Shown here piece by piece: positions 10,728 to 44,726 of a stretch of 64,000 nucleotides of DNA (within the stretch, counting starts at the first letter, position 1; every line of letters starts with the position of its first letter). The stretch is from an uncultured Nitrososphaeraceae archaeon (GTDB lineage Archaea; Thermoproteota; Nitrososphaeria; Nitrososphaerales; Nitrososphaeraceae), in NCBI GenBank assembly GCA_963825865.1, contig CAWGVG010000015.1, forward strand, positions 32,001 through 96,000, in the 5' to 3' direction. Both the position numbers and the translations under genes were made by a program. Below the pieces are notes generated by a model that ran no database searches, was not told the origin of the DNA, and saw only the letters and a list, made by a program, of their open reading frames with translations.

Positions 10728-11778
10728 TGAATCTAGACGATGGATTAGATTTTATCCTCTCCCATTTTCCAAAAGATACACTATGGCCTAGGAAGATATC
10801 CACAAAGGCAACCGATAACCACCAAAGGTTAGTTTATAGTAAAGAGGAAGCACTTGCATGGTTTAAACTGCGTAACTATCTGGATTGCAGGATTAGTGCT
10901 TATCCACCCGTTGATGCTAGTCCTACTCACCATCGATCTTATTATAATAATGATAGACTTGGACCAGTCTAGGTTCAAGTCACGTCTAGCATTAGACAGA
11001 GCATTAGCTAGGACTTTAGATAAGATCAAAGATACATTTGATCTAGTAGTAGAAGAAAAAGAACAACCAGTGTACTGTATTATGGAACCGGAAACGGTTA
11101 TCATATCTATATCCCAATTGAGTCAAGATATGACTAGAAAGAAGGTCAGAGTTTACCAGATATACACAGGAACCATCTAAACACTTCCTACGGTTTGCAG
11201 AGCAATACCTATCAAATGGAAAAGCCGATCCTGAGCATTACAAAACTGTGTCATTTAAGAACTGCATGCTAAGGGTTCCGGGATTTATTAATTCGAAATG
11301 TGGTCAGCAGGTTAGAATTGTAAACAGATGGAATAATAACAATAACAGCAGAGCACCAATATTTTTACTTCTTGGCAGTTTTCTAGCCTACCTAGTAGAT
11401 CAAAATTCATCTAGTAGACGAATGTCATCAACATCAACATCATATACTAATAATAATAATAATAATAATAAAATCACTTGGATAGAATCACTTTTACAAT
11501 CACCGATATTATTATCAGATGGTAGAAAATACTGTTTATGGAGAATATTAGCACCCTATCTTATCAACATAAGAAGGTTGTCATATGAGCAATCATTTAA
11601 CATTATAATAGAATGGTTAGACAAGTGCAACCAGATAGAGAGAAGATTAGACTTTAACCCAAAGACAAAGCTAAAGGAAACACTTGCAAATGTAGGAAGT
11701 TATTACCCGATTAGCCTAGAGAAGTTAAAGCAAGACAATAATGAATTGTATCAAAAAATGATAGTGGAGCAAAGATAA
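10724..11778 (+). CDS. Archaeo-eukaryotic primase fused to a PriX-like C-terminal domain; several indels
   Basis: DCRISAYP, IMIDLD, TGNGYHIY (shifted frame), SFKNCMLRVPG, DGRKYCLWRILAPYLINIR; overlaps the MCM stop. Confidence 0.75.
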
Positions 11779-12292: not shown

Positions 12293-12613
12293 TTATATAG
12301 GATGTCCGGGATAATGATCAGAATCTGCTCTTATCTTAAATCCAATATTATGCTCATCACAGACCTGTATGACATGTCTCATATCTTCTATATCGAGGCT
12401 GTCATATGGCTGTGATATATATTCAGTTTTTCCTTGCTTTGTTTTTCTTGTTTCAAAATGATTTAAATAATTATGATACTCTAACAATGTAACTTTGACT
12501 TTTCCATAGCCAGCATCTACTTCTCTACACAACCATCTTGGAACCTTTCTGCCTACTACTGCTGTCATTTCTTTGATTTCCCTATAAATTCCTTCAATGC
12601 TTGAACTACGCAA
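12293..12613 (-). CDS. Hypothetical protein
   Basis: 106-aa ORF. Confidence 0.5.
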   Translation of the reverse strand: MRSSSIEGIYREIKEMTAVVGRKVPRWLCREVDAGYGKVKVTLLEYHNYLNHFETRKTKQGKTEYISQPYDSLDIEDMRHVIQVCDEHNIGFKIRADSDHYPGHPI

Positions 12614-12993
12614 GCCATGAAATGAAAACAGAAAGAATACCTTAGTTTTTTTCCTTATATATCTATATTTTTATATAAATATATAATACTTCTAATTAGA
12701 GTATTTTATCAATATATAATATGACTAGTAATACTACTACTACTATTACAACAGCATCAAGTAATAATAATAAAGATAAAGATAAAGAAGAGGAAAAGAT
12801 CATTGTGTTTTGTAAACAGAGTAGAGATTGATATGGCAATCTATCAAAAAAGCATGAAGATGTGTACTATAAAGAAACATATGATAGAGAGACAGGGAAA
12901 CCATGCTTTGAAAGAGTATATCTAAAGAATAATAATAATAAAACAAACTAATAAGTTAGTCCGTGCTACCATAGTAATACTAGTTAGTTAATT

Positions 12994-13608
12994 ATGTCGT
13001 CAACAACAATACCAGCATCAGTATTATCCACACTAACAGAGGAAGAACAAAAGAAATATCAAGAGAGATTAGCTGATAAAAGTAAGCCGTATTATTATGG
13101 ATATGATATCGAAAAAGATGCAAATGTAATTGTATATCCAGTCTCGAATGTCGATGAAGGTAAATCAATTACTCTTGATATAGCAAGAGGCAGAGGATTA
13201 CAGCTATATCCAAAAAGGAATATTCAGATAATGAACAAAATAAGAGGCATGGTAGTTGGAATGGGAGGATGTGGTCCTATAGATTCGATCCCCGGTGGTA
13301 TAAAGCAGCTTACAGAAGCTAATAGTGATGAGTTTACTATTAACTACATACTTGAAGACTTAGAAAAAGAAAAGAAGGTAGTCAAGGTATATGATTACAA
13401 GTTAGTTGGACCAGCATGGAATACACCAGACTGGGAGAAACCTCATAGAGAGTATGATCCTATTAAATTCAAATGGTATACGATAGAAAAAGCTGAAGTT
13501 GATGGTGTCCTTGAGATAAAGTGCAGGTATTGTAGTAAAAAGTTTCCTTCAGAACATGACATGAAAAAGCATTTCAACAATAGCCATACCCCACGACGTA
13601 GGGTATAG
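12994..13608 (+). CDS. Module gene A, copy 1: hypothetical protein with a C-terminal C2H2 finger
   Basis: CRYCSKKF...HFNNSH; paralogous to 21735-22205. Confidence 0.8.
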   Translation: MSSTTIPASVLSTLTEEEQKKYQERLADKSKPYYYGYDIEKDANVIVYPVSNVDEGKSITLDIARGRGLQLYPKRNIQIMNKIRGMVVGMGGCGPIDSIPGGIKQLTEANSDEFTINYILEDLEKEKKVVKVYDYKLVGPAWNTPDWEKPHREYDPIKFKWYTIEKAEVDGVLEIKCRYCSKKFPSEHDMKKHFNNSHTPRRRV

Positions 13609-13700
13609 TAGTAGTAGTATTATTAGTAGTGCTACTACTATCAGAGCATAAAGAATAAAGCTTTCCTTCATCATTATATAATTTGAGATAATAATCAAAA

Positions 13701-14173
13701 ATGATTGATAGTAATAATATGGCTGAAATGATGAAGGACATCTCAATTTATAATTTGGACCCATATAGGAAGATGGTGAAAAATACTAAAACCGGAGCAT
13801 ACATTATTTGCAATAATTCAACTAATGAAGTGGAAAGTAAAGGAGTGATAAATCCTAATCCTAATCCTCCTCCTGCTCCTGCCTTGAGTACCAGCATCAA
13901 AAAGGTTCTGAGCAAAATAATATTGTTGATAACAGCTTTGCTCTAGAGATGTATGGACTAGTGAATCTATGTTCGGGTAAAACAAGTACTTATGAAGATA
14001 TTCAAACTAACTATATGTCTGCTTATCCTTCTTCTCATCAACAACGTCAATATTTGAAGGGTTCACATCAGCAACAGAGAAATAATAACGTCAATAATAA
14101 TATACTGGCAATAGAGCTGTACGAACAGCTTGTTAACCAGTTTATCGGAGGAGGTAATCATAATGGCTGGTAA
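13701..14173 (+). CDS. Module gene B, copy 1; indels
   Basis: ORFs 13701-13946 and 13949-14173 together align with the 141-aa ORF at 22308-22733. Confidence 0.75.
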
Positions 14174-14309
14174 GAAATATAGTAAAAATATCAAACCAAA
14201 AACAGCACCGGGCTTGGAATCGAGTCATGGTCCTTTATCTGCTGACTCTTCGGTAAGTGGTAATCCAACTGTATTAGCTCCTAATAGAAAATCTAAGAAA
14301 GCAAAGTAA
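14163..14309 (+). CDS. Module gene C, copy 1: 48-aa basic peptide, not in the ORF track
   Basis: MAGKKYSKNIKPKTAPGLESSHGPLSADSSVSGNPTVLAPNRKSKKAK; conserved paralog at 22723. Confidence 0.7.
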   Translation: MAGKKYSKNIKPKTAPGLESSHGPLSADSSVSGNPTVLAPNRKSKKAK

Positions 14310-14463
14310 GTAAGGTAGTTAGTTAGCTCGTTAGCTAATAATATGCAAAAAAACGGCATAACTGAGCACAACCAGTTTACATGTACATTGTATATTGTCT
14401 ATAAGATAATATAAGATAATGTATAATATATAATATATTTATGATTGATTATTTATAATATAT

Positions 14464-14599
14464 AATAGTAATAGCTGGATGATAGTATGAGCAAAGCTAC
14501 AACTAAAACACACTTTATTATTATTGTATTATTTCATTAAAAATAGTAATAGCTGGTTAATTGTGTGAGTAAATCTACTAATAAAACACACTTTATTAT
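14464..14599. repeat. Imperfect ~58-bp direct repeat with a 78-bp period
   Basis: AATAGTAATAGCTGG...TAAAACACACTTTATTAT at 14464 and 14542. Confidence 0.75.
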
Positions 14600-14690
14600 C
14601 CAACTATCGTAGATTAGCATTTTCTGACATGTTCTGATAGGGTTGGACCATATTTTAAGCCAAAATATAACATATAATAATAATAATATA

Positions 14691-14786
14691 ATGACTACTG
14701 AACTAAAGTTCTGGATTGCAATGCTGTTATTATTAACTACTATGCAATTTGGTATTGCTGGTTTCAGATTTTTGTTATCAAAATAA
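14691..14786 (+). CDS. Possible 31-aa single-TM peptide
   Basis: MTTELKFWIAMLLLLTTMQFGIAGFRFLLSK. Confidence 0.35.
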   Translation: MTTELKFWIAMLLLLTTMQFGIAGFRFLLSK

Positions 14787-14829
14787 TTAATGATGATAAC
14801 AAGAGAGTATAATTATAACTTGCCTCTAA

Positions 14830-15065
14830 TATACAGCTAGAAGGAATGGATGAAGAGGGAAAAATAAAATAGTAGATAACAAGAAGTTAACTTGCTCCCT
14901 AACATTTGACTTGATTGTTTCTCACTCAGGATAATAGTAATAATATGATATGATATAATAGTAGAAGAATAATAATACTCACTCATTATTATATTATATT
15001 ATTTTATTATCATTATCCTGTCTCTCATTCTTTCCTTCCTTCCATTTCTATTATTATTATTTACC
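14830..15065 (+). repeat. Structured ~200-nt dispersed repeat, copy 1
   Basis: TATACAGCT-AGAAGGAATG...CAAGAAGTT(A/G)ACTTGCT...CAGGATAA...TTATCCTG...TTCCTTCC; homologous to the copies at 17199 and 26902. Confidence 0.85.
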
Positions 15066-15195
15066 ACTACTACTATTATCTACTACTTCCGTACATAGAA
15101 GGATATGATTTTTCTACAAAGAGATTGATTGTTTCCATTTGAAAGTAAATAAATAAAAAAGAATAATAAAAATAACTGTTTATTAACAAATCTAG

Positions 15196-15933
15196 TTGTC
15201 GTCAGAAGCCGATATTTCTCTTAATTTTCCAGAGAAGAGTATATCAAAGACACCGATAAAGACATCAATAGATGGGTTAAAAAAAGATATTAAATCCAAA
15301 GAAAAAGATAGTTCTACAAAGCTACAAGAATTTCTAAAAAAATACGAAAAAGAGTTCAAGGAAGACCTTGTTTATAAAGGAATAGTCTATGATATTACAG
15401 AAACTGAAGTATTGTATATGATGAAAGGTGCTTTGACATTATATGCATTAAACCTGAATGGTCAGGTGTTAATTGAATTAGCAGGCCTTCTTGAAAGATA
15501 TGCTATTGTATACATAGAGGAATTAAAGTCACTACGTTCAGTTCAACTGTTTTCTGATGGACAACATGCAATTGAGGAAATCTTGGAAAAGAAGTTCCTA
15601 GATGAACTTGCTAAACATCTGATTACGTTAGGATTATGGGATAAAGAGGATTTTAAAGAGGTAGAAAAACTACTTAAAAAACGTAACTACGTTGCACACA
15701 AGAATGTAAAGAAAATCAAAGGAATGTTAAGTTCTAGCAAAAGCATTTCAATTCCTGAAATAGATATTGCCATGTCAGGCTTTGACGTTCTGCAGTTTAT
15801 GTTTATCACAATTCGACTCTTGTTCAAATTAGTTGATAGGTTTTTTATTAAGACTGAGAGGTATAGAATAGCAAAAGATCTTTTAGATTCAAAGATAATG
15901 GATGAATTAGAATATTTTAAAACAACGAATTAA
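15196..15933 (+). CDS. Putative HEPN-domain protein
   Basis: All-helical, with an Rx4H motif (KRNYVAH). Confidence 0.55.
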   Translation: MSSEADISLNFPEKSISKTPIKTSIDGLKKDIKSKEKDSSTKLQEFLKKYEKEFKEDLVYKGIVYDITETEVLYMMKGALTLYALNLNGQVLIELAGLLERYAIVYIEELKSLRSVQLFSDGQHAIEEILEKKFLDELAKHLITLGLWDKEDFKEVEKLLKKRNYVAHKNVKKIKGMLSSSKSISIPEIDIAMSGFDVLQFMFITIRLLFKLVDRFFIKTERYRIAKDLLDSKIMDELEYFKTTN

Positions 15934-15985
15934 AGTAAACAAAGAAATAATTATTTCCCATTATTATATACACACATACACACAA

Positions 15986-17114
15986 TTATTGGGGATTAGA
16001 CCTTTTACTTGAAAATTTCTTTGTTGCTACCTTCATATGTATATAGTAGGACATCAATATAATGAATATAGTGGTAACAGGTATTACAGCTATAATATAT
16101 GTATATAGTGGGAATTGTATATTGTAAAGTATCAATATAAATGTGTTAGAAAGGGTAGTGTAAACAAGTATTACAGCTATACTATATTTCAATAATGCTC
16201 TGAACCTTTTTTTAAGATATTCCTCCCAATTTGTATTCTTCAGAATTTGTTCTGATAGATATACATACTCTTCATTATAGATTTTTAAGGCATTCTCATT
16301 AAGAGAATGGTATGAGATAATTCTCCCGTCTCCTATTTTCTACGAATAATTCTTCAAATCGTCTATACTCATCAAAGCATAATATCTTTCTCATTCTAAG
16401 TTTCTTAGATTTACTCCAGTCTTGCAATTTGCCCTTATATAGAGAATTTTGATTAAGCATTTTTATAACTTTCATAATCTTCTTTTTTTCTTGTTCCAAT
16501 ATTGAATAATTTCTCACGGTAATAATTGGATTCATTATTAACGTCTTGCCAAAAATGAGCACAAATTCAATTATAACGGAAAGACCTAAAAGAAATATAG
16601 GATTTGATAACGGATTAGGTGGTGAAGATGTAAATGTTTTACGTTCCTCACCAATTTTGGCTGTTGCTTGATTACTTCCATCATCATGATTTGCAAGTAT
16701 AATAAAAGACCCAGTCTGGTCAAATTTTGTAAATTTTATATCAAATGCAATAGAATTATCTCCAATTATTGATCTATTAAAGGTAGCAATTCTCCCTTGA
16801 GTATATGGTGGTAACTTGGTTAAGTCAGTGATAGTTATCTGTTCAGCAGTAACTCCTTCTGGATTAACATTATCTATTTTACCAGGGGGGTCCGTATACA
16901 TTGCTAACCTAACATTTTTTGCCGTTTTTAATCCTGTATTGGTAATTGTTGCATTACCAGATGAATTATCTGAAGATATTTTAATTGTAATATTTATCAA
17001 AGGTTTACCGATAAAGTCATTATACAAGATATTGGCTAAAAATACAACTAGTCCACTACCTATGATAATTGATATAATATTTAAAAGTGAAACTTTAGCA
17101 GTATTCTCTGCCAT
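15986..17114 (-). CDS. Membrane protein with an extracellular Ig/CARDB-like domain; indel
   Basis: N-terminal TM, ITNTGLKTAKNV, further TMs; ORFs 16299-17114 and 15986-16192. Confidence 0.55.
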
Positions 17115-17198
17115 CCTTATACTGTTGTTATATTGAACAATTATTTATAGACGACACCAATCCAACTATTGAGGATCAGTCTTTTGCTTCAAGACGAC

Positions 17199-17375
17199 GA
17201 AGGAATGAATGAAGAGGGAGAAATAATAACAAGAAGTTGACTTGCTAATAACATCTTCATTTTACTATCAGGATAATAGTAATAATATGATATGATATTA
17301 TAGTAATGGTAAGCAGAACCAGCTCACTACTATTATATTATTATTATCAATATTGCTATTATCCTGCTGTCTCTT
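17199..17375 (+). repeat. Structured dispersed repeat, copy 2 (3'-truncated)
   Basis: GAAGGAATGAATGAAGAGGGA...CAAGAAGTTGACTTGCT...CAGGATAA...TTATCCTG. Confidence 0.85.
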
Positions 17376-17379
17376 CGAA

Positions 17380-20300
17380 AAGAGACAGGACACAAGTAAG
17401 AAAGCAATTTTTACATGGAGTAAATACGAGAAAGAAATTCCCAGCATAGATGAAATAAACAACTGGTTTAACTCTCAAATGGTAACGATGATCTGTAAAA
17501 ATAACATTGCCATAGTAACGGGCATCATATCCAGACTTTTAGTAATTGACATAGATGGTGAAGAATGCATAAAGCTATTTTATGAGATGGTTCAAAACAG
17601 GTTATCGGATAACTTACAACGTGAGATTGTCAATACACTAGCTGTTAGAACTGGTAGTGGGGAGGGTTTACAGATATATCTCAGATTCAACATTGAGGAA
17701 AAAGAAAACCCTCCAAACTTTTTCTTTACCCCCACCACTTGAACATAAAGAAATTAGAATAAAATGTAATGGTAGTTATGTAATAGGCTTGAACTCAAAA
17801 ACTAAAAATGAATATAAACTCAATTCTGAGGAGAAGAAACTAATTGTATTATTTTCCAAAAAAGAGATTAATGAATTACTTAGGGCTTTAGAACATATTA
17901 AGACTACTACTACTAGTAATGATGGTAATACTGGTAATAGGTACTACTAATAATAGTAAAAATGAACAAACCATCAAATTAGATGTAATCGAAATAGACA
18001 GGAACACAATCGTTAAAGGATTGTTATTCTAAAGGAAGGAGAGATGACATTGTATTTGCATTATCTGGATATTTACATAGAAGATACATAGATTAGCAAT
18101 CTACCATTGAAATTGTAAATTCTCTAATAACTCTATCAGAAGAGGGAAATGATGAAGAGTATAATTCTAGATTAAATGTAGTTCGTAGGACATACAAAAA
18201 GGATAGAAATAGTGATGAAAGTTACTGGACATAAATACTTACTATCAACGTTATCATCTATTTTAGATAAGGATGAAGTTAGAGCAAAACAAATTCTGCA
18301 TTCTGAGATAAATTCAGTAATAAATAAGGCATTAAAAGATGCTGGTTTTTCTTTTAGAATTGTTGATAATAATAATAACAACAATGATGACGATCCACAA
18401 GAAGAGGAAGAAAAAAAGTCAGCAGAAGAAAACAAACTCACTAAAGAACAGATTGATTTTGTCATAAATACAATGAAAAAGGAAGAGCATATGATGAACT
18501 ATCAATAAAACAGTTATTTTATGGAATGGATACTGCTTTTACTAAACGTCCTGCTTCTCATAATGTCAATTCAAAGATTCTGGGTTCAGGTAAAAATTAT
18601 TTGATGGAGTTAGTTTCTAACTATTTTCCCGAAAAGTATGTTATAAACATAAACCACATGTCAGACAAGGCAATTTTTCACAGAGAAGGAATTATGGTTA
18701 GAGAAAATCATGAAACTGGCAAACTTGAACCAATAAGACCTATAATAAAAAACCTTGAATCTAAGATTGAAGACTTACAAGAGCAAATTGAAACTGAAAG
18801 GCAAAAAAATAACAACCCTCCTACAGAAGAAAGTAGAAAACTGATTAAGGATAACAAAAAAAGAATTCAGGAAATCAATGAAGAGATTAAGGATATAGAA
18901 CAACATGCATTAAAGCAAATTGACCTTAACAATCAGATAATTCTCTGCCTCGATACACCACAAGAATCAATATATAATTCATTAATGAGCTTAGTCAGTC
19001 AGGATACTAAAAGAGGACAGAAGTATGAATTTGTAGAAAAATCAGGAATCTGGTAAACTAGGTACAGAAAATAATGTATTAATTGGTACTCCATTTATAT
19101 GCACCAGTCAGGTAATAGATGATACAAAAGGGGAACGTTTCCAAGAAAAGAATAGAAGGTTTACCAATGTAAACCCTGATACAAGTGATAAAAAAATTGG
19201 TACTGCAAATGATATAATTGTATTGCAAGGTGGCTACCTACCAGAAGAGTATGACGAACTGGTAGTAAGTAGATCAGATAAGGAAAAAGCCAGAAATATA
19301 GTCAAAATCATCGTAGCCAAGTTAAAGTAGCATACAAAGCACTTAGGCCCAAAAGAACACGGCATAAAGATTCCATTTGCTCTATCAATATCAGCATGTA
19401 TACCAACGACTCATGTTTGGAGTATGACGGTCACAGATAGAATAATGAAAATATCTTGCTATAATCACAAAAGTAAATATGGATTCAAGGCCAAAACTGC
19501 TAGACGTAAACACAGGTAAATTTTATCCTATATCTACGTACGTGGACTTTAAGGAAACTTTGAATTTAATGCAAGTTGCTGCTAGTGGTGTTAGGCCTTA
19601 CCTTGTAGACTGGTTCAATAATAGATTTCTTTCTGTATACAATGATTTAGGAGGAAAGCCAGATAAGATATACAATGATGATATAGGTAAATACGTAACT
19701 GTATCAAAGGAAAAACGTGCTGGACTTACAACCAAACAGATAGCAGATAGAATTGGAGAAAAGTTTGGAGGGTTAAAACTAAGCACTAAGGAATGTTATG
19801 AAAAAGAACCTAATACCTCTAATTAATCTGGGAATAATAGACCATATCGAAAGTGAGATAAGGAGAAATCAGCATATCTATTTTCCGGTCCAAGAAGATA
19901 CCCATCTATTCCATATTTTTGATTAAAAAGCTGGCCTAAAACTAAAAATACCAAGTCTTGAAAGATTTCCTAGTAAGAATTTTCTGAAATCACAATTTGG
20001 AATCTTGTCAAAGTCATCGTTTTTGGGGGGTGATATTTTTGAAAAAAATATTTCTTCATATAAGTTGGTAGATGTTGATGGGTCAGAGATTACAATAGAC
20101 CAATTGATAGAAAAATACTTTACAAATCCCGAAGAATGCTTTGTTAAAACATACAAAGAAGATTGAAGATAACACTAGCAATAAACAAGATAATAATGGT
20201 AATGGTAATGGTAGCACCTTAGAGACTTTGTTAAAATTAAAAGCAAGGCTACCAGCAATATACTATATCAAAGTCAGATTTTGATGAAACAAAAAAATAA

Positions 20301-20555
20301 TTTTTTTTCTCACCCTTCTGTAACGATGACTTTTACGAGATTCTCTAACAATAATATAGAAGAATGTAAACAGAGGAAAAGCAAGAACAACAAGATCCTG
20401 TAAATACTGCTAGTAAAAAGTTCAAGTGCTTTTATTGTGATGAATATTTCTATAGTAATGATGTATTGAAGAAATCACAGAGAGCAGTGTACCATCCTGA
20501 TAAACGTCTAGACTATCCTACTCCAGAGGACTTTGATAATCGAATGGAGTTATAG
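17380..20555 (+). pseudogene. Prim-pol (bifunctional primase-polymerase) plus P-loop helicase replication gene with a C-terminal Zn finger; heavily interrupted
   Basis: NIAIVTG, LLVIDIDG, RTGSGEGLQIY, EIRIKCNGSYVIG; Walker A GSGKNYL; tail KFKCFYCDE...YPTPEDFDNRMEL. Many frameshifts, at least one in-frame stop and no clean start. Real decay cannot be separated from sequencing error. Confidence 0.7.
20000..20343. repeat. Long inverted repeat inside the 3' part of the second helicase gene (putative origin)
   Basis: GAATCTTGTCAAAGTCATCGTT (20000-20021) versus AACGATGACTTTTACGAGATTC (20322-20343), 20/22 complementary; continues inward with GGGTGA/TCACCC and A/T tracts. Confidence 0.75.
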
Positions 20556-20717
20556 GGGAGCAGCTTTTCGTGAAGCTACTTACTAGAACCAAAATAGGAC
20601 AACACAAAAACCATATACCATTTTATGCTGTCCTAGTCATGATTTAGAATGACAAAAGAGATTGTTATTTCAAACAATAAAAGCATTTTTGATTCTAGTG
20701 AGGTGTGTAAACTAAAA

Positions 20718-21624
20718 ATGACACCAACAGAAGTTATGAATGCTCAAACATTTGGATTTTCTGTCATAACTATAGCAATAGCAGTAGCATCTGCTATTGT
20801 AGGTATCTTGTCATTCCACTATAATAGTAAGATGAATAAACTAAACTCATTAGTAAAAGCCTTCGAGATTATTAAACGATAATGCTCATAGAAATGCTAG
20901 AATTAGGCTATATAGAGTAGCAAGAGCTTCCACACCATCACAGACAGGAAGCACACTTAAGATTGTTGGGTGTAGAAGACAAAGATCTAAGAACTATAGT
21001 CGGAGAATCTGAAAATATGGTATTGGCAGATTTTGATCAGATGGGAACTTTAGTTAAAAACAAACTTCTTCCTGTAAACGAATTTCTGAACGTTTATTGG
21101 AATACTATTATATCAACCTATGAAATAATATACACGAACGATAAAAGAGATTCTCTATAAGGATTTTGAATTTCTTATATGCTAAGGCTAAGAGCTCAGA
21201 GACGAAAAAGATCCAAATAAACAAATTCCATTGGAAAAAGAAATTTATCGTGTAAAGCTTTTCGGTACAGGTGCAATGTAACCAACAAATATCTATTGGA
21301 AAAACCCAAACTATTAGTGTAACAGTCAGTGACTCTTTTGAGGCAGTATATGGTTTTCCGTATGGCAGTGTTGGAAATGTGTATAATGCTGAAGTGTGTG
21401 TCAAAGTATCTGATAAGGAATCAGAAAGTTTGGTTATTTCATTAGATACACAAAAAACTGATGTACATGGTAATACTGAATTTCAAGTATCAATAACAGA
21501 TAGCTACTTCAAAGTTGGAAAGACGTATAATGTTAAAGCCTTTATATCAGCAAAAGGTTATCGAAATTCTGAATCAGGATATAAAGTATTTTTTACTGTT
21601 AACAACTCTCAGGACTATATCTAA
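20718..21624 (+). CDS. Membrane-anchored DUF4760-like protein, possibly fused to an Ig-like domain; indels
   Basis: N-terminal TM; VLADFDQMGTLVKNKLLP..FLNVYWNTII pattern; beta-rich ORF 21271-21624 follows. Confidence 0.45.
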
Positions 21625-21734
21625 TATATCTATATTTATATATACAGATAATACCACTATCATATGAAAAATAATATGACGACTGTCATTAGTAGTATAC
21701 GTACTAGTATTGATAAGGATGATAAGATTGCATC

Positions 21735-22205
21735 GTGTTTGCTAAAATTTGCAGAGACAGATACGGTCTTAATGAGGCAAGAGGAAGAGGACTACAGCTA
21801 TATCCAAAGAGAAACGTCCACATAATGAACAAGATTAGAAGCATGGTAGTTGGAATGGGTGGGAGTGGTCCTATAGATTCTATCCCCGGTGGTATAAAGC
21901 AATTTACAGAAGCTAATAGTGACGAATTCACCTGTAATTATATTCTTGAAGATCTGGAGAAGGAAGGAAGTGTAGTAAAAGTATATCCTGTTATTAAGAC
22001 TGGTCCCGGTGATCCAAGAGATAATAGCTATTTTGGTCATCCTGTAAAGGAATATTCAAAGACTGGTTACAAGTGGTATACTCTACAACGAGCTGAAGCC
22101 GATGGTGTTCTTGAGTTACGTTGTCGGTATTGTTCTAAAGTATTCAAGACTGATAAGGAAAGGACTAAGCATTTCAACAATAGCCATACCCCACGTAGGG
22201 TATAG
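21735..22205 (+). CDS. Module gene A, copy 2
   Basis: ARGRGLQLYPKRN...CRYCSK...HFNNSHTPRRV, near-identical to 12994-13608. Confidence 0.8.
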   Translation: MFAKICRDRYGLNEARGRGLQLYPKRNVHIMNKIRSMVVGMGGSGPIDSIPGGIKQFTEANSDEFTCNYILEDLEKEGSVVKVYPVIKTGPGDPRDNSYFGHPVKEYSKTGYKWYTLQRAEADGVLELRCRYCSKVFKTDKERTKHFNNSHTPRRV

Positions 22206-22300
22206 TAGTATTATTAGTAGTAGTAGTACTGCTGCTGATATCATAGCATAAAAGATAAAACAAACTATCTTCATTATATAATTTGAGATAATAATCAAAA

Positions 22301-22733
22301 ATGATCGTTGGCAGATATCTTGAAAAATATAAGTGTGCAAGATCTAGGGGAAGGAAGGAAGATGGTGAAGCACACGAACGGCAGTTATATAATATGCAAT
22401 GGGAACCAGATCGAGCAAAGAGGTTTTGTAAATCCTGATCCTCCTGCTGCTACTCAGTACCAACAACAGCAACATCAATTGCAAAAAGCTACAATTCAAC
22501 GTAATAATAGCAATGCCCTAGAGATGTATGGATTAGTAAATAAGATAACTGGTAGATCGGACATTTACGATAATATTGAAACTATGACTACTGCTGCTTA
22601 CCCTCATCAAGGTCAATATCTAAAAGCATCAGAACAGCAACAAAGAAGTAATAATAATAATAGAAATGCAATCGAGATGTATGAAATGATTCAAAGCTTG
22701 TTCGGAGGAGGTAATAACATCAATGGCTGGTAG
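22301..22733 (+). CDS. Module gene B, copy 2
   Basis: 141-aa ORF from 22308. The ATG at 22301 lies in the conserved promoter context, implying an indel. Confidence 0.75.
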
Positions 22734-22866
22734 TAATAAGAAGAAGTATAATATCAAACCCAAAACAGCACCGGGCTTGAATGCAAGTCACTCCCCTTTA
22801 AGTGCCGATTCTATAGGTGGTAATCCTACAACTATAAATCCACGAAAAGCCAAGAAACCAAAGTAA
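22723..22866 (+). CDS. Module gene C, copy 2: 47-aa basic peptide, not in the ORF track
   Basis: MAGSNKKKYNIKPKTAPGLNASHSPLSADSIGGNPTTINPRKAKKPK. Confidence 0.7.
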   Translation: MAGSNKKKYNIKPKTAPGLNASHSPLSADSIGGNPTTINPRKAKKPK

Positions 22867-23356
22867 AAAGTTAGTTAGTTAGCTCGTGTATTATATAATT
22901 ATATAATAATAATAATAATTATAATATGATATCAACAAGAACGAAAAAACAGGATAAAGATAAACAAAATAATAAAGAAGCTATTGTTATAGCAGCAATG
23001 CGAGCAAAAGAAATTATGGGAAAAATACTTTTCTACCGACAATCCTATGATTAAATTTGAATGCTTGAGTAAGCTCCACGATCTCACATTAGACTTAGTA
23101 AACCTACAATATAGTGCTTACATGCAGAATTATAATTTTGATCATATCAAGAAATCTTCATCACCATTGAAGAGAGGTTATAAGCTTTCTAATTCACCTA
23201 ATACTAGGATGATACTAAGCAGGTTTATCAATAATAATGATGAGGATCTTCGATAACTATTAACACTATTCGTGTTAATAATAGCACGATTTATCAACAC
23301 TTTTAGCTACTAATATCATAATAGTAATAATAATAACGACAGAAGGAAGAAAGAAA

Positions 23357-23905
23357 ATGTCAAAGCTAACAAAAGAGCAACGTGAGGAACTAAAACATCT
23401 GGTACTAAATGGTATTGTCCATCATTTTACAATGTCTGAAATCCAGCAGTATATACTACAGAGCAAGCTAAAGACACAAATCAGTATTGACTATATCAAG
23501 CATCTGAAACTAGAATTAAAAAAGGATTCAAAGAAAGAATTAGATTATCTAGCTAAAGACAGATTTGCTTATACCCATTCTATATTCTTTGAACGACTTG
23601 AAGAGCTAAAATCATATCAAAGGACTCTGCATAATATAGTTTTGAACAATCAAGATAAACCAGAAGCACAGGTTAAGGCAATATCTGAGTTGAAGGATAT
23701 CACATTAGAGATTGTAAACTTGTATCAAATGTTACCTGTTATAGTAAGCAATCCTGGAGTACATGTAACTACTGTAGTAGATGATAATAATATTAATATT
23801 AATAATAATAATAATTACTCTACAAGAACAACAACAGCAACAATAAAACAACATCCAGACGGCTGCAACTGTACTGAGTGCTATGATCCAGAAGCAAAAT
23901 TCTAA
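23357..23905 (+). CDS. HTH plus helical-hairpin protein with terminase-small-subunit-like architecture and a Cys-rich tail
   Basis: N-terminal HTH-like FTMSEIQQYI..ISIDYI, long amphipathic helices, HPDGCNCTEC tail. The TerS assignment is inference. Confidence 0.5.
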   Translation: MSKLTKEQREELKHLVLNGIVHHFTMSEIQQYILQSKLKTQISIDYIKHLKLELKKDSKKELDYLAKDRFAYTHSIFFERLEELKSYQRTLHNIVLNNQDKPEAQVKAISELKDITLEIVNLYQMLPVIVSNPGVHVTTVVDDNNININNNNNYSTRTTTATIKQHPDGCNCTECYDPEAKF

Positions 23906-23923
23906 CAGCAAGAATAAAAGGAG

Positions 23924-23952
23924 ATACAGTATAAAAGGGGATTATACTGTAT
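23924..23952. terminator. Perfect 11-7-11 palindrome at the CRISPR trailer end (terminator and/or recombinase core site)
   Basis: ATACAGTATAA-AAGGGGA-TTATACTGTAT, between a converging gene and the array. Confidence 0.7.
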
Positions 23953-23956
23953 TTTT

Positions 23957-24316
23957 ATGTCAATCCTACCATAGTTCGATTCAAACAAGGCTCAAACGTG
24001 CCTGGTACTGCTGACTTATATCCCTTTCAATCCTACCATAGTTCGATTCAAACGTTCCTATCTGTACTAGTCCCTGGTGTTCCTGCTTCCTTTCAATCCT
24101 ACCATAGTTCGATTCAAACTCTTTTTTGTAAATAATCTGGGAAACCTGTTATTTCCTTTCAATCCTACCATAGTTCGATTCAAACATAACAGCAGATATT
24201 CTAAACGTTCATTATGCTTTCTTTCAATCCTACCATAGTTCGATTCAAACTTTCTGCTGTTGTAATGCCTGCTCCTGTTCTATGATCTTTCAATCCTACC
24301 ATAGTTCGATTCAAAC
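23957..24316 (-). CRISPR. CRISPR mini-array: 6 repeats of 30 bp, 5 spacers of 35-37 bp, no cas genes in the window
   Basis: Repeats at 23957 (degenerate terminal copy, ATGT for CTTT), 24024, 24090, 24156, 24221 and 24287. On the minus strand the repeat reads GTTTGAATCGAACTATGGTAGGATTGAAAG, with an ATTGAAAG handle. Confidence 0.97.
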
Positions 24317-24460
24317 TCCCTACTAATACATCCTAAATACACCCTTTATCTATAAACTTTCAGGGTCAACCTCCGATAATGCATTCTCTTTATAAATGCT
24401 AACCATTTTCAGAGGCATAATAAAAATTATATAATGAAGGAGGATTTAAAAAGTCTACAC
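24317..24460 (-). promoter_or_regulatory. CRISPR leader with an archaeal BRE-TATA promoter
   Basis: Minus-strand GAAAGTTTATAGA at 24361-24349, ending 32 bp before the first repeat, on the side opposite the degenerate repeat. Confidence 0.7.
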
Positions 24461-24485
24461 CTCTTAATGCTGGATTGAGGTTAAG

Positions 24486-24779
24486 ATGTCATCTCCAACC
24501 CCTAATCTAATCGAATGGCCAGCCCTTTACCTTATTGCCCAAGTTATAGGGTTTATAGTAGCAATAATAGTGATATTAAAAGTTACACATGATATTACCA
24601 AGAAGCTTACCAGTATAGAAAAAGATGTTGAATATCTCAAAAATACCGTAGAAAAACATACAGAAAAACTAGAAGAATTCACGTATACATATAAGGCAGA
24701 CATATTAGTCAGGCAAGCTCTAGATAAAGCTGAAGAAAAGAAAAAGAAAGAAAGAGAAGGAGAAAAGAAGAAAGAATGA
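24486..24779 (+). CDS. TM plus coiled-coil hypothetical protein
   Basis: One TM then a heptad pattern; ATGA overlap with the next gene. Confidence 0.7.
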   Translation: MSSPTPNLIEWPALYLIAQVIGFIVAIIVILKVTHDITKKLTSIEKDVEYLKNTVEKHTEKLEEFTYTYKADILVRQALDKAEEKKKKEREGEKKKE

Positions 24780-25039
24780 GCAGTATTCCAATAGACTACA
24801 GTAATGAGAAGATGGATTATTTAATGAAGAAGATGTATCTTCATATGCTGACAAAAGAGGAAGCAAGGGAACTTATGCTATTGGTAGAAAAGGAAAAACA
24901 AAAAGCAGTAAAGTATGATGACAAGGAATACCAAGAAATTTTGTCTGGTTTACTGGACTCATTGAAGATGTATATGGCAGGAAAAATTAATCTTTATGAG
25001 AGCAGTATTGTTGATAGGTTGAAAGTTTCAAACGTCTAG
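24776..25039 (+). CDS. Helical hypothetical protein
   Basis: 87-aa ORF, translationally coupled to the previous gene. Confidence 0.7.
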   Translation: MSSIPIDYSNEKMDYLMKKMYLHMLTKEEARELMLLVEKEKQKAVKYDDKEYQEILSGLLDSLKMYMAGKINLYESSIVDRLKVSNV

Positions 25040-25152
25040 TAATCGGTTATCATTAATGTATATCATGTTTATCATCAAGCAATCCATTATCACCGAGAAA
25101 CAAAGAAAAAGAAATAATTAATTATTACTTGTCTCTATTATTGTGATTCGAA

Positions 25153-25458
25153 ATGACAAATAATAATAATAATAATAATAATATAATAATCGTCGATGTT
25201 ACAGTTGCAGACAACCAGATTCGAGCATTGAAACCAAAAGATGAATATCAAACTATGTTAATGCCAAATACTGATACTGAAAAATTATTATGGTGGAATT
25301 CTGTAGATCCAGGTAGGCTTAACAATCGTCTCTATGGCACCTTGAAAGGCCAAGCATTGAAGAAAGCACAGAAATTAGTTGATTCTCAAGGATCAATTTC
25401 TACGAGTGGAGAATATGGCAGTATAGAAATTTCAGAAGAAGATTTTATTCCACTTTAA
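25153..25458 (+). CDS. Hypothetical protein
   Basis: 101-aa ORF. Confidence 0.55.
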   Translation: MTNNNNNNNNIIIVDVTVADNQIRALKPKDEYQTMLMPNTDTEKLLWWNSVDPGRLNNRLYGTLKGQALKKAQKLVDSQGSISTSGEYGSIEISEEDFIPL

Positions 25459-25639
25459 AGTAAAAAATAAAGAATAAGAAAAATATAATATAATATAATA
25501 TAATGTCTAAATAAAATATCAATCAAAGTATAATTATAACTTGCCTCTCAAAGTATAATTATAATTTACACCATATAGGATAAACGTAAATCAATCAGTC
25601 TTTTGCTTCAAAATATAGAGGGGGTTATACTGTATTTTT

Positions 25640-25780
25640 ATGTCAATCCTACCATAGTTCGATTCAAACTAATTAGTGCACTTACCTCTACATTCAAGAC
25701 ATCTGACTTTCAATCCTACAATAGTTCCATTCAAACGTTTGAGTCAGCCCTAATGCTATTTCTATATGTAATTCCTTTCA
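25640..25780 (-). CRISPR. Second, leaderless CRISPR remnant: 2 repeats, a 6-nt repeat stub and 2 spacers
   Basis: Repeat 25640-25669 (same degenerate terminal repeat), 37-bp spacer, repeat 25707-25736 (2 mismatches), 38-bp spacer, CTTTCA stub at 25775. Confidence 0.9.
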
Positions 25781-25828
25781 CTTGATAAACAAAGAAATAA
25801 TTCCTTATTACTATTATAGCCTAGAGGA

Positions 25829-26752
25829 ATGAGCCATATTACTGAAGAACCGTTTTCAAACGAACTTTTCTCTGCAAGGGTACTTCCAACTCTTTTACTG
25901 ATTGTTATGCCATTTGCTTGGGGAATAATATTGCCATATCTTTTTCCAATTTTTCATTTTCACCAGAGCATAGTTATACCAACAATAGGCAAGCACCCAG
26001 TAGTTCCATTCGATTATCTTACTATTGTCATTGTCTTTCCTCCGGGACTTCTTTTTTTCATGTTTTATTATCATTATCGTTTAGCCTTTGCTGACAACTA
26101 TTTTGAAAAAAGAGGTTACCAAATTGCAATTAACGAATATGATTACATAAATAAAGTTCTATATATTGAAGTTGTGCTAATAATTATCTTAACACTTCTT
26201 TTTTATACTCTTCCTCCATCCATGAAAGAAGGCTATTTATCTCCATTACTAGGAGATGGATTTTATTTCCTACAGGCAACATTAATTATTACTGTATACA
26301 ACACGTTCTTTACTTTGAGCTTTTCATATGGTCAAAGAGATTTTAGATTTGAATTTGCAAAAGCCTGTATGAATGTCATTGAAAATAAGAAAGATGAAGT
26401 TAATAAAATCTATTACTTAATGCTAGGATTAGACTCATACAACAAATTCCTCAAAAGAAATATAAAACTTCAGTTTGATGATACAATGGTTTGTTCAAAA
26501 ATAATCTCATCATCTGAGAAAAATCAATCACTTAATTTGATAACTGCATCCTTTAAAGATAATGATAAATTAAAACCAGTTAGTTGCCTATCTAATATTA
26601 TAAAACTTCCTGATAAGGGACAATTTTTGGTAAAAAAACCATTAAAGGGTAAGATAAAAGATGCTGTAACAATTCTAACGGCTATAATTCCTATAGTAAT
26701 TTCGATACTTCAGTTGATGTTTCCAAAATATTTTCAAATGCTACTCAAGTAA
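25829..26752 (+). CDS. Multi-pass membrane protein
   Basis: About 5 hydrophobic helices, 307 aa, intact. Confidence 0.75.
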   Translation: MSHITEEPFSNELFSARVLPTLLLIVMPFAWGIILPYLFPIFHFHQSIVIPTIGKHPVVPFDYLTIVIVFPPGLLFFMFYYHYRLAFADNYFEKRGYQIAINEYDYINKVLYIEVVLIIILTLLFYTLPPSMKEGYLSPLLGDGFYFLQATLIITVYNTFFTLSFSYGQRDFRFEFAKACMNVIENKKDEVNKIYYLMLGLDSYNKFLKRNIKLQFDDTMVCSKIISSSEKNQSLNLITASFKDNDKLKPVSCLSNIIKLPDKGQFLVKKPLKGKIKDAVTILTAIIPIVISILQLMFPKYFQMLLK

Positions 26753-26901
26753 GCAAAAATAATTATGCTTGGAATATTTTTAACTACCCTCTTATGCAGG
26801 TATAGCCAAATTATACAAGGACCGATTAATTATATAATAAGAAAGGTATACTAAAAAATAAAAACAAGTAAACAAAGAAATAATTATTTCCTTGTTGCTA
26901 T

Positions 26902-27094
26902 TATACAGCTAAGAAGGAATGAATGAGGGAAAACAAATAACAACAAGAAGTTGACTTGCTGAACATCTTCATTTTACTCTATCAGGATAATAATAGTAAT
27001 ATGATAGTAGAGTAATGGTAATCAGCTCATTATTATATTATTATTGTTATCCTGTTCCTTCATTCCTTCCTTCCTTTCTATTTCTATTATTTAC
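26902..27094 (+). repeat. Structured dispersed repeat, copy 3
   Basis: Outer stem GAAGGAATGAA (26913) / TTCATTCCTTC (27059); inner 26-bp stem spanning 26983-27054. Confidence 0.85.
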
Positions 27095-27207
27095 TATCAT
27101 ACATTGAAGATGCTTAGGTTATGCACAATATATTCAAAAATTTCCAATCATCAATAGCTTCTACTTGATCACTTTTAACTGACAAATTCATTGTTTCACT
27201 GAGTAAT

Positions 27208-28927
27208 TTGGCAACCTCAGCAGCATGCCAGTATAAAAATGAATTTTATGTTGACTTTACATGTGACCAACCCACCAGAGACACAGAAAGCAAATTCTGT
27301 ATATTTCATGATACAAATTATCTTAAAGACGATAACTATGATAAACACAAGGAAGAAGTAACAAAGAGATTTGAAGATAAACTATCAGAATATTCTTCCA
27401 AAAACATGCCTTTGAAATTTATAGGCTATTGTTTGCCAGAGATTTCATTTAAAGATGAGAAATTTAGTGAAGAGATTCACTTTAATGAAGCCACGTTTTC
27501 TGGAGTAGCAAACTTTGATGGAGCTACATTCTCCAAAAAAGCTCACTTTGATGGAGCTAAATTCTCCGAAGAAGCATACTTTAGTTATGCTACATTCTCC
27601 AAACCAGCTCACTTTTCTGGAGCTAAATTCTCCGAAGAAGCAAACTTTTCTGTAACCAAATTCTACGAAGAAGCAAACTTTTCTGTAACCAAATTCTACG
27701 AAGAAGCAAACTTTTCTGGAGCTACATTCTCCAAACATGCATACTTTTATAGAGCTACATTCTCCAAACGAGCAGACTTTTATGGAGCTACATTCTCCAA
27801 ACCAGCAGACTTTTCTGGAGCTACATTCTCCATAGCCGAGTTTGAAAAGGTCAGGTTCGTAGAGATAGCCAACTTTGATGAAGCTGAATTCAAGGTAGCA
27901 GAATTCACTGAAGTTACATTTTCTAAAGAAGCTAATTTCATTTATGCTAAATTTTCAAACTTAGATTTTTCTCACACTAAATTCTTAAATGAAGTTCGTT
28001 TTTCAGAAGAAAAAAAAATAAAAATTTTTGATGGTGAAACTTTATTCAGATACACAATTTTTGAGCAGCCCAACAAGGCTATATTTGATACAAATGATTT
28101 ATCCAGGGTATCATTTGCTGGTAGTGACATATCTAAGGTAACTTTTACAGATAAAGTAAGGTGGGGTGGAGATGACGGTCTGAAGGTGATTGAAGAAGAA
28201 TGGTTAGAAAAATTAGGAAAGGAAAAGAAGCTAGAAAGTGAACACGAACAAGAAAATGAAATCAAACGAATAAGCTTGGACCTTGTATTATATGTATATC
28301 GTAGGTTAAGAGAGAACTATGAGTTCAAACTCAAATTTGACGAAGCAGGTAAATTCTTTATAAAAGAAATGGAATTAAAAAGAAAGTACAGAGAAGCTCC
28401 TTCACTATCTGCTGTTTTCAAACGTAAATTAATTAAATTCCTTAAGAAATTAAAACTTGTAAATGCTAATGTACAAGAGCCAAAGATTGAATATGTTCTT
28501 AAACAAAATGGAAGACTCAGAAGACATTTCTCGTTAACTGGTTTGTATTATCATCTTTCTACTTATGGTGAAAGCATAGTTAAACCAACTATAATTGGTG
28601 CAATAACGGTTGGACTTTCAACATTGTTTTGGCTACTTCAAAATAATCCAACAGTCGAACCTTCTATTTCTTTTATTGCTAATAATAAATTACATATGGC
28701 TAAAACAGACTTCTGATTTCATTAATGCTACTCAGATTTGGAACAATACACATACATTGAAGGCTTTTGAAAGAAGTCTTGCAGATTTTCTCCCTTTGCT
28801 TTCATTACCAGGTGATATCAAAGTAGGAGTAATAGATTATGTTATCAAAATAGTAGGTGGTGCTCTTACTTTCGGTCTTCTTCTAATAGCTTTGAGAAGG
28901 AAATTTGAAAGAAAATATACACGTTAA
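27208..28927 (+). CDS. Pentapeptide-repeat protein with C-terminal membrane segments; indel near 28700
   Basis: A(N/D)FSGATFS repeats including an exact 30-bp duplication; N-terminal FCIFH; YGES..P and ALRRKFERK in the TM region. Confidence 0.85.
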
Positions 28928-29018
28928 TTACAGCCTATGCAACAATATTTAGTTTAATCAATTTCTCTATTTTAATAATTATTCAAAAGACTTGGTTCGT
29001 TGAGATCAATCATGAAGC

Positions 29019-29258
29019 TTATTCATCCTTATCAGCTAAATCAGTAGTAGTACTGGTAGTATTAGATTTATTACTATTACCGGATTTAGATTTCTTCTTC
29101 TTCTTATCCTTCTGTATATATGGAATGTCAGTCAGAGTATTTGAGATATTATCCCGGCATGTAATAGCCTTGTGGCTTGTGTCAATGCTATACATAAGAT
29201 CCATCAATGGTTCAGTATCTTTATTTCTGTCTAGGTCTTCAATTGACTTTCTTGCCAT
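29019..29258 (-). CDS. Hypothetical protein
   Basis: 79-aa ORF with an ATG start. Confidence 0.4.
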   Translation of the reverse strand: MARKSIEDLDRNKDTEPLMDLMYSIDTSHKAITCRDNISNTLTDIPYIQKDKKKKKSKSGNSNKSNTTSTTTDLADKDE

Positions 29259-29314
29259 GTTGTTATTATTATAATATTATAATAGGACACTTTTATTATT
29301 ATAGATATATAATC

Positions 29315-29533
29315 ATGACAGCAGCAGAAGTAGAGCCACAGGAAGAAGAAGAAGGACCGTTATTTACTAATTCATATGATCTACTAAATACAATATTGGA
29401 TGACGTAAATACTCTAGAGCATAAATGTAATAACACCAAGACAATCGGTGATGTTGTAATGTTTTGGAACAAGTCAAAATTAGATTTATTTAAAATATCA
29501 ACCGAATTGGAATTGCTGAAAGTGTATTTATAA
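29315..29533 (+). CDS. Hypothetical protein
   Basis: MTAAEVEPQEEEEGPLF..., 72 aa, divergent from the previous ORF. Confidence 0.45.
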   Translation: MTAAEVEPQEEEEGPLFTNSYDLLNTILDDVNTLEHKCNNTKTIGDVVMFWNKSKLDLFKISTELELLKVYL

Positions 29534-44630: not shown

Positions 44631-44726
44631 GCCGTCGTAGCTCAGCCTGGGAGAGCACTCGACCCGATATGTTCGGGAGTGAAGCTGAAGACCGAGCTGT
44701 CGTGAGCTCAAATCTCACCGACGGCA
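44631..44726 (+). tRNA. tRNA-Phe(GAA) with a 22-nt intron at position 30/31 (44662-44683)
   Basis: Acceptor stem GCCGTCG/CGACGGC; spliced anticodon arm CTCGG-CTGAAGA-CCGAG; bulge-helix-bulge at the junctions. Confidence 0.93.

Follow-up and report, generated by a model that had tools for sequence, protein, structure and literature searches.

An element-specific, strongly folding repeat in an integrated element of a Nitrososphaeraceae archaeon, a candidate structured leader or small RNA

Phages and plasmids carry 5′ stabiliser hairpins as well as put/nut-type cis-acting leader RNAs, which occur in two or three copies per phage. To our knowledge, few structured RNAs have been described for ammonia-oxidising archaea, and little is known about how cargo genes are controlled in their integrated elements. 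In Thaumarchaeota, MCM or primpol genes have been described as replication modules of cryptic integrated elements (PMC6563490); the words hairpin, MITE (miniature inverted-repeat transposable element) and non-coding are absent from the text of that paper. The closest published pattern is that of the Frpo/ssi sites of conjugative plasmids, with several imperfect hairpins per island (PMC11541004). Here we describe a repeat in a stretch of 64,000 nucleotides (nt) from an uncultured Nitrososphaeraceae archaeon (GenBank assembly GCA_963825865.1, contig CAWGVG010000015.1, positions 32,001 to 96,000 of the forward strand), hereafter the window, to which all positions without a contig name refer. The repeat unit of 170-260 bases has a promoter-like stretch and, behind it, a long stable hairpin, and its three copies lie within 12 kb, in the same orientation, inside one element that encodes an integrase, an MCM helicase and a prim-pol. 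The repeat is real, strongly folding, element-specific and of no described family, and it is tentatively read here as a transcribed structured leader or small RNA placed before variable cargo slots.

Three copies of a strongly folding repeat

Three diverged copies had been placed in this region by a preliminary description of this DNA, and all three were recovered on the plus strand, at ~14806-15065 (copy 1), 17199-17367 (copy 2) and 26866-27095 (copy 3). Self-BLAST of the window aligned copy 1 with copy 3 at 71.8% over 259 columns (14809-15064 / 26880-27094), copy 2 with copy 3 at 78.3% (17199-17348 / 26913-27051) and copy 1 with copy 2 at 75.4% (14840-15020 / 17199-17366). The parts of each copy are as follows.

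14840-14860, plus strand: copy 1, 5′ arm of the outer stem, 19 pairs with 15021-15042
14878-14896, plus strand: copy 1, conserved box, holding a perfect 10-bp palindrome
14927-15020, plus strand: copy 1, long hairpin of 94 nt
15021-15065, plus strand: copy 1, 3′ outer-stem arm and pyrimidine/T-rich tail
17199-17268, plus strand: copy 2, 5′-arm sequence, box (17228-17246) and linker, with no 3′ partner arm
17269-17366, plus strand: copy 2, long hairpin of 98 nt, overlapping the start of the prim-pol frame
17367-17388, plus strand: separate, unrelated 9-bp hairpin after the long hairpin of copy 2
26913-26931, plus strand: copy 3, 5′ arm of the outer stem, 18 pairs with 27055-27073
26942-26960, plus strand: copy 3, conserved box
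26983-27054, plus strand: copy 3, long hairpin of 72 nt, 26 consecutive pairs
27055-27095, plus strand: copy 3, 3′ outer-stem arm and T-rich tail

The pairing of the long hairpins was reproduced as first described. In copy 3, positions 26983-27008 pair with 27029-27054 without interruption, and the four non-Watson-Crick pairs are all G-U or U-G; in copy 1, 34 of the 36 positions pair between 14927-14962 and 14985-15020 (four G-U, with A-C and U-U as the two mismatches), and 16 pairs, one of them U-G, form the hairpin base of copy 2. An enclosing outer stem had also been proposed; it is present in copies 1 and 3, where it stacks directly on the 3′ side of the hairpin, and is missing from copy 2. 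The box CAAGAAGTT(G/A)ACTTGCT occurs in all three copies; its core is the perfect palindrome AAGTTAACTT in copy 1 and reads AAGTTGACTT in the other two, and no complement of at least 12 nt that could be its antisense target was found anywhere in the genome. The three-way junction suggested around the box was not recovered; instead, a weakly structured bulge of 51-66 nt was obtained, in which the only common helix is an invariant 4-bp CAAG/CUUG.

The fold is kept despite 22-28% divergence and the unequal hairpin lengths, and in a model-fitted alignment of the three sequences 89.5% of the pair cells are paired, compared to 37-62% when the 3′ partners are slid. Against dinucleotide shuffles, the plus strands of copies 1-3 gave z values of -8.3, -6.0 and -7.05, and the minus strands -5.0, -3.8 and -5.8. 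As the arms are A-rich and T-rich low-complexity tracts, each arm was shuffled separately as well; under RNA parameters, z values of -4.8, -6.6 and -7.3 were obtained for the plus strands, with none of the 300 shuffles per copy being as stable, and of -3.5, -4.3 and -4.6 for the minus strands. Under RNA parameters, folding of the plus strand is favoured over that of the minus strand by 5.8, 8.5 and 16 kcal/mol. The hairpins reach no more than -11.9 to -14.6 kcal/mol under DNA parameters, which is weak, and in copies 1 and 2 there is then little difference between the strands. A gapless hairpin scan of the 4.98 Mb genome returned 67 hairpins scoring at least 17, of which copy 1 ranks second and copy 3 ninth, and in a sliding-window fold scan that took in paralogous elements the three copies stood out by being both very low in G+C and highly stable. 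A folded structure with a bias to the plus strand is thus real, and goes beyond low complexity. The accompanying claim of covariation fails because three sequences give no power: in a structural alignment of the three copies both sides change in 2 of 51 pairs, and 159 of 500 shuffles reach the same number.

Only the three copies were found in the genome. BLAST of the genome yielded 41 matches, three of them real and the other 38 short and of low complexity, at E >= 0.0055, and covariance model R1 yielded four, namely the three copies and the reverse strand of copy 3 (38.8 bits). A MITE scattered genome-wide, one of the findings named beforehand as refuting the proposal, was thus not observed, as the three copies all lie in one element. 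Successive copies are spaced by 2359 nt, with two opposed open reading frames (ORFs) between them, and by 9714 nt, with at least 15 ORFs and two CRISPR arrays between them. BLAST of 100 family genomes found no repeat, 13 of them giving just low-complexity matches of 21-65 nt, and model R1 had no match in 150 family genomes; one genome flagged as unpublished (G076) enters these negative counts only. As stated in the preliminary description, no known RNA family was recognised: Rfam gave no match in the whole window at gathering score, and even at E up to 1 none appeared in 9553 bases surrounding the copies. No match to the repeat was obtained by blastn in phage and plasmid collections. In viral contigs, a 17-mer pattern hit 12 loci and a three-anchor pattern one, all by chance, and a two-anchor pattern hit one chance locus in metagenome contigs and four chance loci, all in Streptococcus, in genome contigs. 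The loci around homologues of the ORF at 15196, which follows copy 1, held no repeat match, and protein-guided searches of viral contigs with the MCM, ORF 15196, the integrase and ORF 25829 found no related loci. An independent soil-metagenome run contains a 208-nt contig that matches 14786-14994 except for a single letter, which shows that the repeat sequence is not an assembly artefact. The evidence base is three copies in one genome.

It is unlikely that these units have no function of their own and derive from a duplicated promoter with a quasi-palindromic low-complexity expansion, or from an old MITE-like insertion, kept palindromic by arm-to-arm templated repair. The near-perfect hairpins at such divergence and with arms of different length, and the plus strands that no arm-wise shuffle equalled in RNA stability, speak against such an origin, as do the absence of a visible target-site duplication at the outer-arm borders and the copy number of three with none elsewhere in the genome. 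What it would explain is the ATA/TAT-type low complexity of the arms, the truncation of copy 2 beside a broken gene, and the 5′ arms of copies 1 and 2, which are identical over 30 nt while their 3′ arms differ, suggesting recent conversion. The element is moreover a patchwork of short shared words and duplicated modules, and a paralogue of the promoter-like module on another contig, described below, works without a long hairpin.

Promoter-like modules and the variable slots behind them

Directly upstream of copies 1 and 3 lie stretches that recur elsewhere in the element, and the left part of the repeat is probably a promoter module. This call rests on motif sharing, since a start-codon profile gave only a faint TA signal. 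The module copies are as follows.

14806-14828, plus strand: promoter-like module before copy 1 (GTATAATTATAACTTGCCTCT)
15933-15958, plus strand: 26-mer of the promoter module standing alone, with the same sequence as 26866-26891, immediately behind the stop codon of ORF 15196-15933
25786-25831, plus strand: hairpin-less promoter-module copy, ending in the ATG of ORF 25829-26752
26866-26912, plus strand: promoter-like module before copy 3, with an exact 17-mer (TAAACAAAGAAATAATT)

The 22-mer GTATAATTATAACTTGCCTCT recurs at 25527-25548, ahead of the leader of the second CRISPR array, and within that leader the 18-mer ATCAGTCTTTTGCTTCAA from ahead of copy 2 is found again. Exact copies of the 17-mer TAAACAAAGAAATAATT start at 15936, 25786 and 26869, and nine matches with up to three mismatches were found versus 2.15 expected. 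At 25786 the exact 17-mer ends 26 nt ahead of the ATG of ORF 25829-26752, and a close variant at 25103 ends 33 nt ahead of the ATG of ORF 25153-25458. Judged from the sequence, the same A/T-rich motif thus stands at a fixed distance before bona fide start codons, as is expected of an archaeal BRE/TATA-type (B recognition element and TATA box) promoter. Archaeal transcription starts ~23 bp after the TATA box (PMC4247193), from which starts near 14840 and 26909 are predicted, either where the outer stem begins to pair or up to 4 nt ahead of it. The plus strand carries all the units as well as the genes downstream of them. Short direct-repeat pairs are present in the non-coding flanks of ORF 15196, at 14464-14599 (58 nt, 86%) and 16069-16197 (42 nt, 81%); the latter contains TATTACAGCTATA, similar to the promoter-module TATACAGCTA.

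A paralogous slot was found on another contig of the genome, C42, at 36023-36952 on the minus strand, where the flanks are 89% and 90% identical to window positions 26534-26832 and 29114-29266. Its insert is 476 nt long, versus 2281 nt in the window, where the slot holds copy 3 and a pentapeptide-repeat gene. The C42 insert begins with the promoter module (CTTGCCTCTATTCTATACAGCTAGAAGGAATGAAT), the sole further genuine module match in the genome, and has no long hairpin; a 44-nt palindrome centred on AGCTATAGCT, in the place taken by the box in copies 1-3, is followed by a fragment of an HNH-like gene. As the same module stands here before a different gene remnant, it precedes variable cargo, and as it does so without a long hairpin, the hairpin and the 3′ arm are additions to the module, with the 5′ arm being older than the hairpin.

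The position of the C42 palindrome and the 10-bp palindrome in the box core itself suggest that the box is a duplex operator for a dimeric protein. Extending this to the whole repeat, with the box as operator for a dimeric regulator encoded by the element and the A+T-rich palindrome as a protein-binding, cruciform or origin-like unwinding site in duplex DNA, gives an account to which we attach little likelihood. It is in keeping with the palindromic box cores of all three copies (AAGTTAACTT being perfect) and the different perfect palindrome at the equivalent place in C42, with the prim-pol gene adjoining copy 2, and with the MCM, PriX and prim-pol genes of the element, genes of the kind reported as replication modules (PMC6563490). 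Nevertheless, the 26-40 bp arms carry 17 G-T or A-C appositions, making them poor substrates for cruciform extrusion, their stability under DNA parameters is low, the energy advantage of the plus strand would be meaningless in duplex DNA, and it would be unusual for one element to have three origin-like sites in a span of 12 kb.

One soil-metagenome run (X8) yielded contigs that, aligned at >=80% likeness, cover 30 of the 30 bins of 12500-29500 and contain diverged relatives of this region. One joint links 14855 to 17258 with 24 other letters between, a further diverged copy in which the 5′ arm and the hairpin base are kept and the linker/box is shorter and different. Another links 15922 to 25790, and thereby ORF 15196 to the region before ORF 25829, at promoter-module words, and a third leads from 17194 back to 15004. 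As these joints differ from the window, the gene order around the modules varies among relatives. Gaps in the contig cover of the stretch in runs X1, X2 and X6 are given no weight here.

The diverged X8 copy also bears on a leader-peptide attenuator, in which translation of a short ORF, opened by an ATG in the 5′ arm, would govern the folding of the outer stem or hairpin. A frame does start at the ATG in GGAATG and runs for 11 codons to a TGA in the box in copies 2 and 3; the indels between these two keep the frame, and the G/A difference in the box amounts to an in-frame change of TGA to TAA. The frame of copy 1 has eight codons and stops early, at TAG TAG; in the C42 paralogue it has four codons, and in the diverged X8 copy it would read on into the hairpin. 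Pairing alone explains the conservation of the 5′ arm. Such an attenuator is very improbable.

Activity as single-stranded DNA, either as a priming site (sso/ssi-like), as an Frpo-like promoter or as a folded tyrosine-recombinase site (attC/CTX-attP-like), is also improbable, though less so than an attenuator. Strand-biased hairpins of 70-100 nt stand before different genes of one element in one orientation, the element has a tyrosine recombinase and a prim-pol, and the X8 contigs join modules differently (15922 to 25790 and 14855 to 17258); several Frpo/ssi sites per leading region, upstream of ORFs, are likewise described for plasmids (PMC11541004). Those joints, however, lie at promoter modules or inside paralogous repeats, where homologous recombination or diverged copies can explain them, and the folds under DNA parameters are weak and strand-symmetric in copies 1 and 2. 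An Frpo-like site would need its folded strand to be the template, here the less stable minus strand. The spacings of 2.36 kb and 9.7 kb do not correspond to single promoterless cassettes, the hairpin base CAGGATAA/TTATCCTG is without attC-type R boxes, and the integrase is 8 kb away and matches no integron-integrase model. The single-stranded recombination site put forward as a candidate in the preliminary description is accordingly not supported, given the weak DNA folds, spacing and content unlike those of cassettes, and the lack of attC-type core sites.

The host, the element and its genes

The genome encodes an archaeal AmoA and has ~33% G+C, and metagenome runs from soil and rhizosphere contain parts of the stretch; the AmoA and this occurrence identify the host as a soil ammonia-oxidising archaeon. 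The integrated element extends over ~5.4-29.5 kb, between genes for a trypsin-like protease and leucyl-tRNA synthetase, and the genome has at least eight paralogous integrase loci. Between the element ends, only low-complexity words were found as candidate attachment sites. The main features of the element and its flank are given below.

5617-6654, plus strand: tyrosine-recombinase-like integrase (weak PF00589 match, PHROG integrases, no NCBIfam model)
8230-9894, plus strand: MCM-type helicase
11248-11778: PriX
15196-15933, plus strand: gene after copy 1, 245 amino acids, with an R-x4-H motif (RNYVAH)
17353-17950, plus strand: gene after copy 2, prim-pol split into two frames (PF09250, E 5e-8)
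23958-24316, plus strand: mini-CRISPR array 1, six repeats
25641-25736, plus strand: mini-CRISPR array 2, two repeats
27208-28716, plus strand: gene after copy 3, pentapeptide-repeat protein (PF13576, E 7e-37)
32846-35485 (minus strand), 29922-32405 (minus strand) and 39497-40663: split or shortened synthetase and GatB frames

Each copy was said to lie upstream of a different plus-strand gene, encoding a HEPN-like protein, a prim-pol and a pentapeptide-repeat protein. The latter two assignments hold; the HEPN-like one comes down to the R-x4-H motif and a weak protein-atlas lead, and ORF 15196-15933 has nothing significant in Pfam, NCBIfam or PADLOC. PADLOC gave no hit among 18 ORFs. Downstream of the element, alanyl-tRNA synthetase is split over three ORFs and the frames of leucyl-tRNA synthetase and GatB are without their N-terminal parts, which suggests assembly frameshift errors or pseudogenes and bears on the split prim-pol too.

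Several further observations were made on the element and the genome. No cas genes lie near the two mini-CRISPR arrays, whose leaders share 98% identity over 51 nt; elsewhere in the genome the CRISPR repeat occurs only as one two-repeat array and two solo repeats (C42:5029-5097, C44:35326 and C46:55936), and none of the six spacers has another genome match at up to 5 mismatches. An internal duplication of ~1.15 kb (13183-14331 / 21777-22887, 68% over 1193 columns) takes in an ORF with a weak C2H2 zinc finger (12994-13608) and the paralogue of that ORF (21735-22205), and metagenome contigs join its two versions in several ways. Within the pentapeptide gene, 27427-27864 holds a 33-nt periodic repeat of nine copies with 62-76% identity, and metagenome relatives differ there by indels of ~70-130 nt. 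ORF 9960-10727 contains the short tandem motifs AACTGACCA and TCAGGTCAG in inverted arrangement (10328-10393 and 10535-10551), and a similar arrangement is present at a paralogous locus (C62:188006-188185). A second, unrelated palindromic family of ~95 nt (arms ATACCA.TTAACA...TGTTAACTGGTATA), which may be MITE-like, occurs at C9:40059-40158, C42:6568-6663 and C28:98554-98645. At C20:13400-13574, a perfect 28-nt inverted repeat combines the 5′ portion of a tRNA-like gene with the reverse complement of that portion ~120 nt downstream, and may be a scar of integration or inversion. A 97-nt tRNA-Ile(GAT) at 44631-44727, probably intron-bearing, was not reported by Rfam at gathering score.

A candidate leader or small RNA and its described relatives

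A new structured RNA is tenable because the plus-biased fold is real and no known RNA family matches, and it gains support from the promoter module directly upstream of copies 1 and 3. Each copy may accordingly be a transcribed structured leader or small RNA before variable cargo slots, a reading that we favour over each of the others while holding it somewhat short of even confidence. Under this reading, we infer that an archaeal BRE/TATA-type duplex promoter of the element would drive a plus-strand RNA starting 0-4 nt before the purine-rich 5′ arm, so that its 5′ end would be locked in the outer stem. The weakly structured one-sided bulge of 51-66 nt would present the box AACAAGAAGTT(G/A)ACTTGCT, and the A+U-rich hairpin of 72-98 nt, with 26-40 bp of A-U/G-U pairs, would be coaxial with the outer stem. 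In copies 1 and 3, pairing of the pyrimidine-rich 3′ arm with the 5′ arm would give a rod of 45-55 bp followed by a T-rich tail. Such an RNA would act in cis, on or beside the variable cargo genes of the integrated element, where the rod may shield the 5′ end of the transcript or modulate read-through into the cargo gene. Alternatively, the rod may be released as a stable RNA of ~165-205 nt, in which case a trans-acting RNA would be plausible. For the near-palindromic box, the probable role is that of an operator or protein-binding site that the three units share and that would couple them.

A stronger form of the proposal, in which the units would represent a new class of discrete ~165-205 nt RNAs of archaeal mobile elements acting in trans in conflicts of elements with one another or with the host, appears doubtful to us. 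The paralogous integrase-bearing elements of the genome that have mini-CRISPR arrays number at least eight. Such RNAs would be characterised by the terminal stem, the conserved single-stranded box and the 26-40 bp hairpin, and might serve as decoys, as regulators of the adjacent R-x4-H or pentapeptide cargo genes, or as precursors of small guides.

Several observations weigh against a leader or small RNA. The palindrome in the box, which is perfect in copy 1, is of a DNA type, and the 44-nt palindrome of C42 folds better on the opposite strand (-25.9 versus -12.8 kcal/mol). Copy 2 is without the 3′ outer arm and adjoins a degraded prim-pol frame, and covariation is not significant with three copies. 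The wobble bias, from which selection on a folded plus strand had initially been concluded, does exist, with 13 G-U pairs versus four A-C mismatches over the three hairpins; it is nevertheless modest, and the copies share ancestry. Part of it may be compositional, because the plus strand carries a slight excess of G over C (2287 versus 2122 at 14-28 kb); within the hairpins, G clearly exceeds C in copy 3 (12 versus 6), while the counts are 9 versus 8 in copy 1 and 13 versus 12 in copy 2. In the start-codon-anchored profile of 800 long ORFs, the TA signal at -27/-26 was only faint. A promoter-like A-rich motif that seems to belong to ORF 15196 itself lies 20-40 nt upstream of it, which argues against a simple 5′ untranslated region role for copy 1 and favours a separate unit. 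No run of at least five T follows the units, leaving a discrete 3′ end uncertain, and no RNA run was listed as containing positions 14300-17500.

The repeat is a well-founded but single-locus candidate. Should it prove to be transcribed, the unit would serve as a compact and portable cassette of promoter plus leader by which variable cargo slots are marked. It would then offer a way to locate these slots and to study control at the RNA level in the mobile elements of archaea.

Several described families can be set aside on comparison. The units have no boxes or pocket of C/D or H/ACA guide RNAs, no tandem repeats as in type III toxin-antitoxin RNAs, and no similarity to the CRISPR repeat as expected of a CRISPR leader or anti-repeat. 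They are like MITEs in size (170-210 nt), in having an A+T-rich foldable interior and, for copies 1 and 3 only, in the inverted arms at their ends; unlike in MITEs, the homology extends past the arms into the promoter module and the 5′ arm occurs alone on C42. A MITE is further rejected by the presence of only three copies in 4.98 Mb, all in the same orientation within 12 kb; no target-site duplication was seen at the arm borders. The outer inverted repeat around a short structured region and a long hairpin, upstream of effector-like genes, resembles the msr-msd region of retrons; no reverse transcriptase was found among the 40 window ORFs scanned with Pfam, and the repeat differs in having three copies rather than one and in its outer repeat, present in two of three copies and absent from copy 2.

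Integron attC sites carry core sites of the consensus RYYYAAC ... GTTRRRY. The repeat is similar to them in that structure is better kept than sequence, in its hairpin of 72-98 nt, which is in the attC range, and in the tyrosine recombinase of the element. It was rejected as an attC site because there is no cassette array, the units carry a promoter motif and are spaced by 2359 and 9714 nt, the only tyrosine recombinase (5617-6654) is 8 kb upstream and not integron-type, and the bases read CAGGATAA ... TTATCCTG in all copies, without R′′/R′ core sites.

Closer still are the Frpo/ssi sites, which are imperfect hairpins a few hundred nt long, each before a different accessory gene and in one orientation, and for which the folded strand has to be the template of the downstream genes (PMC11541004). 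In contrast, the better-folding strand of the repeat as RNA is the coding strand, which as DNA folds as well as the minus strand or better; the stability of the repeat under DNA parameters is low, an ordinary duplex promoter motif lies upstream, and neither bacterial -35/-10 logic nor conjugation genes were seen.

Compared to the leader RNAs of phages and plasmids, the repeat differs in its archaeal host, in a much longer rod with a one-sided bulge of 51-66 nt, in having no Rfam or sequence similarity to them, and in that its transcription is a prediction. It resembles them in being promoter-proximal and strand-specific, with the 5′ end of the RNA predicted to be sequestered in a stem, and in occurring in several copies per mobile element, before different operons.

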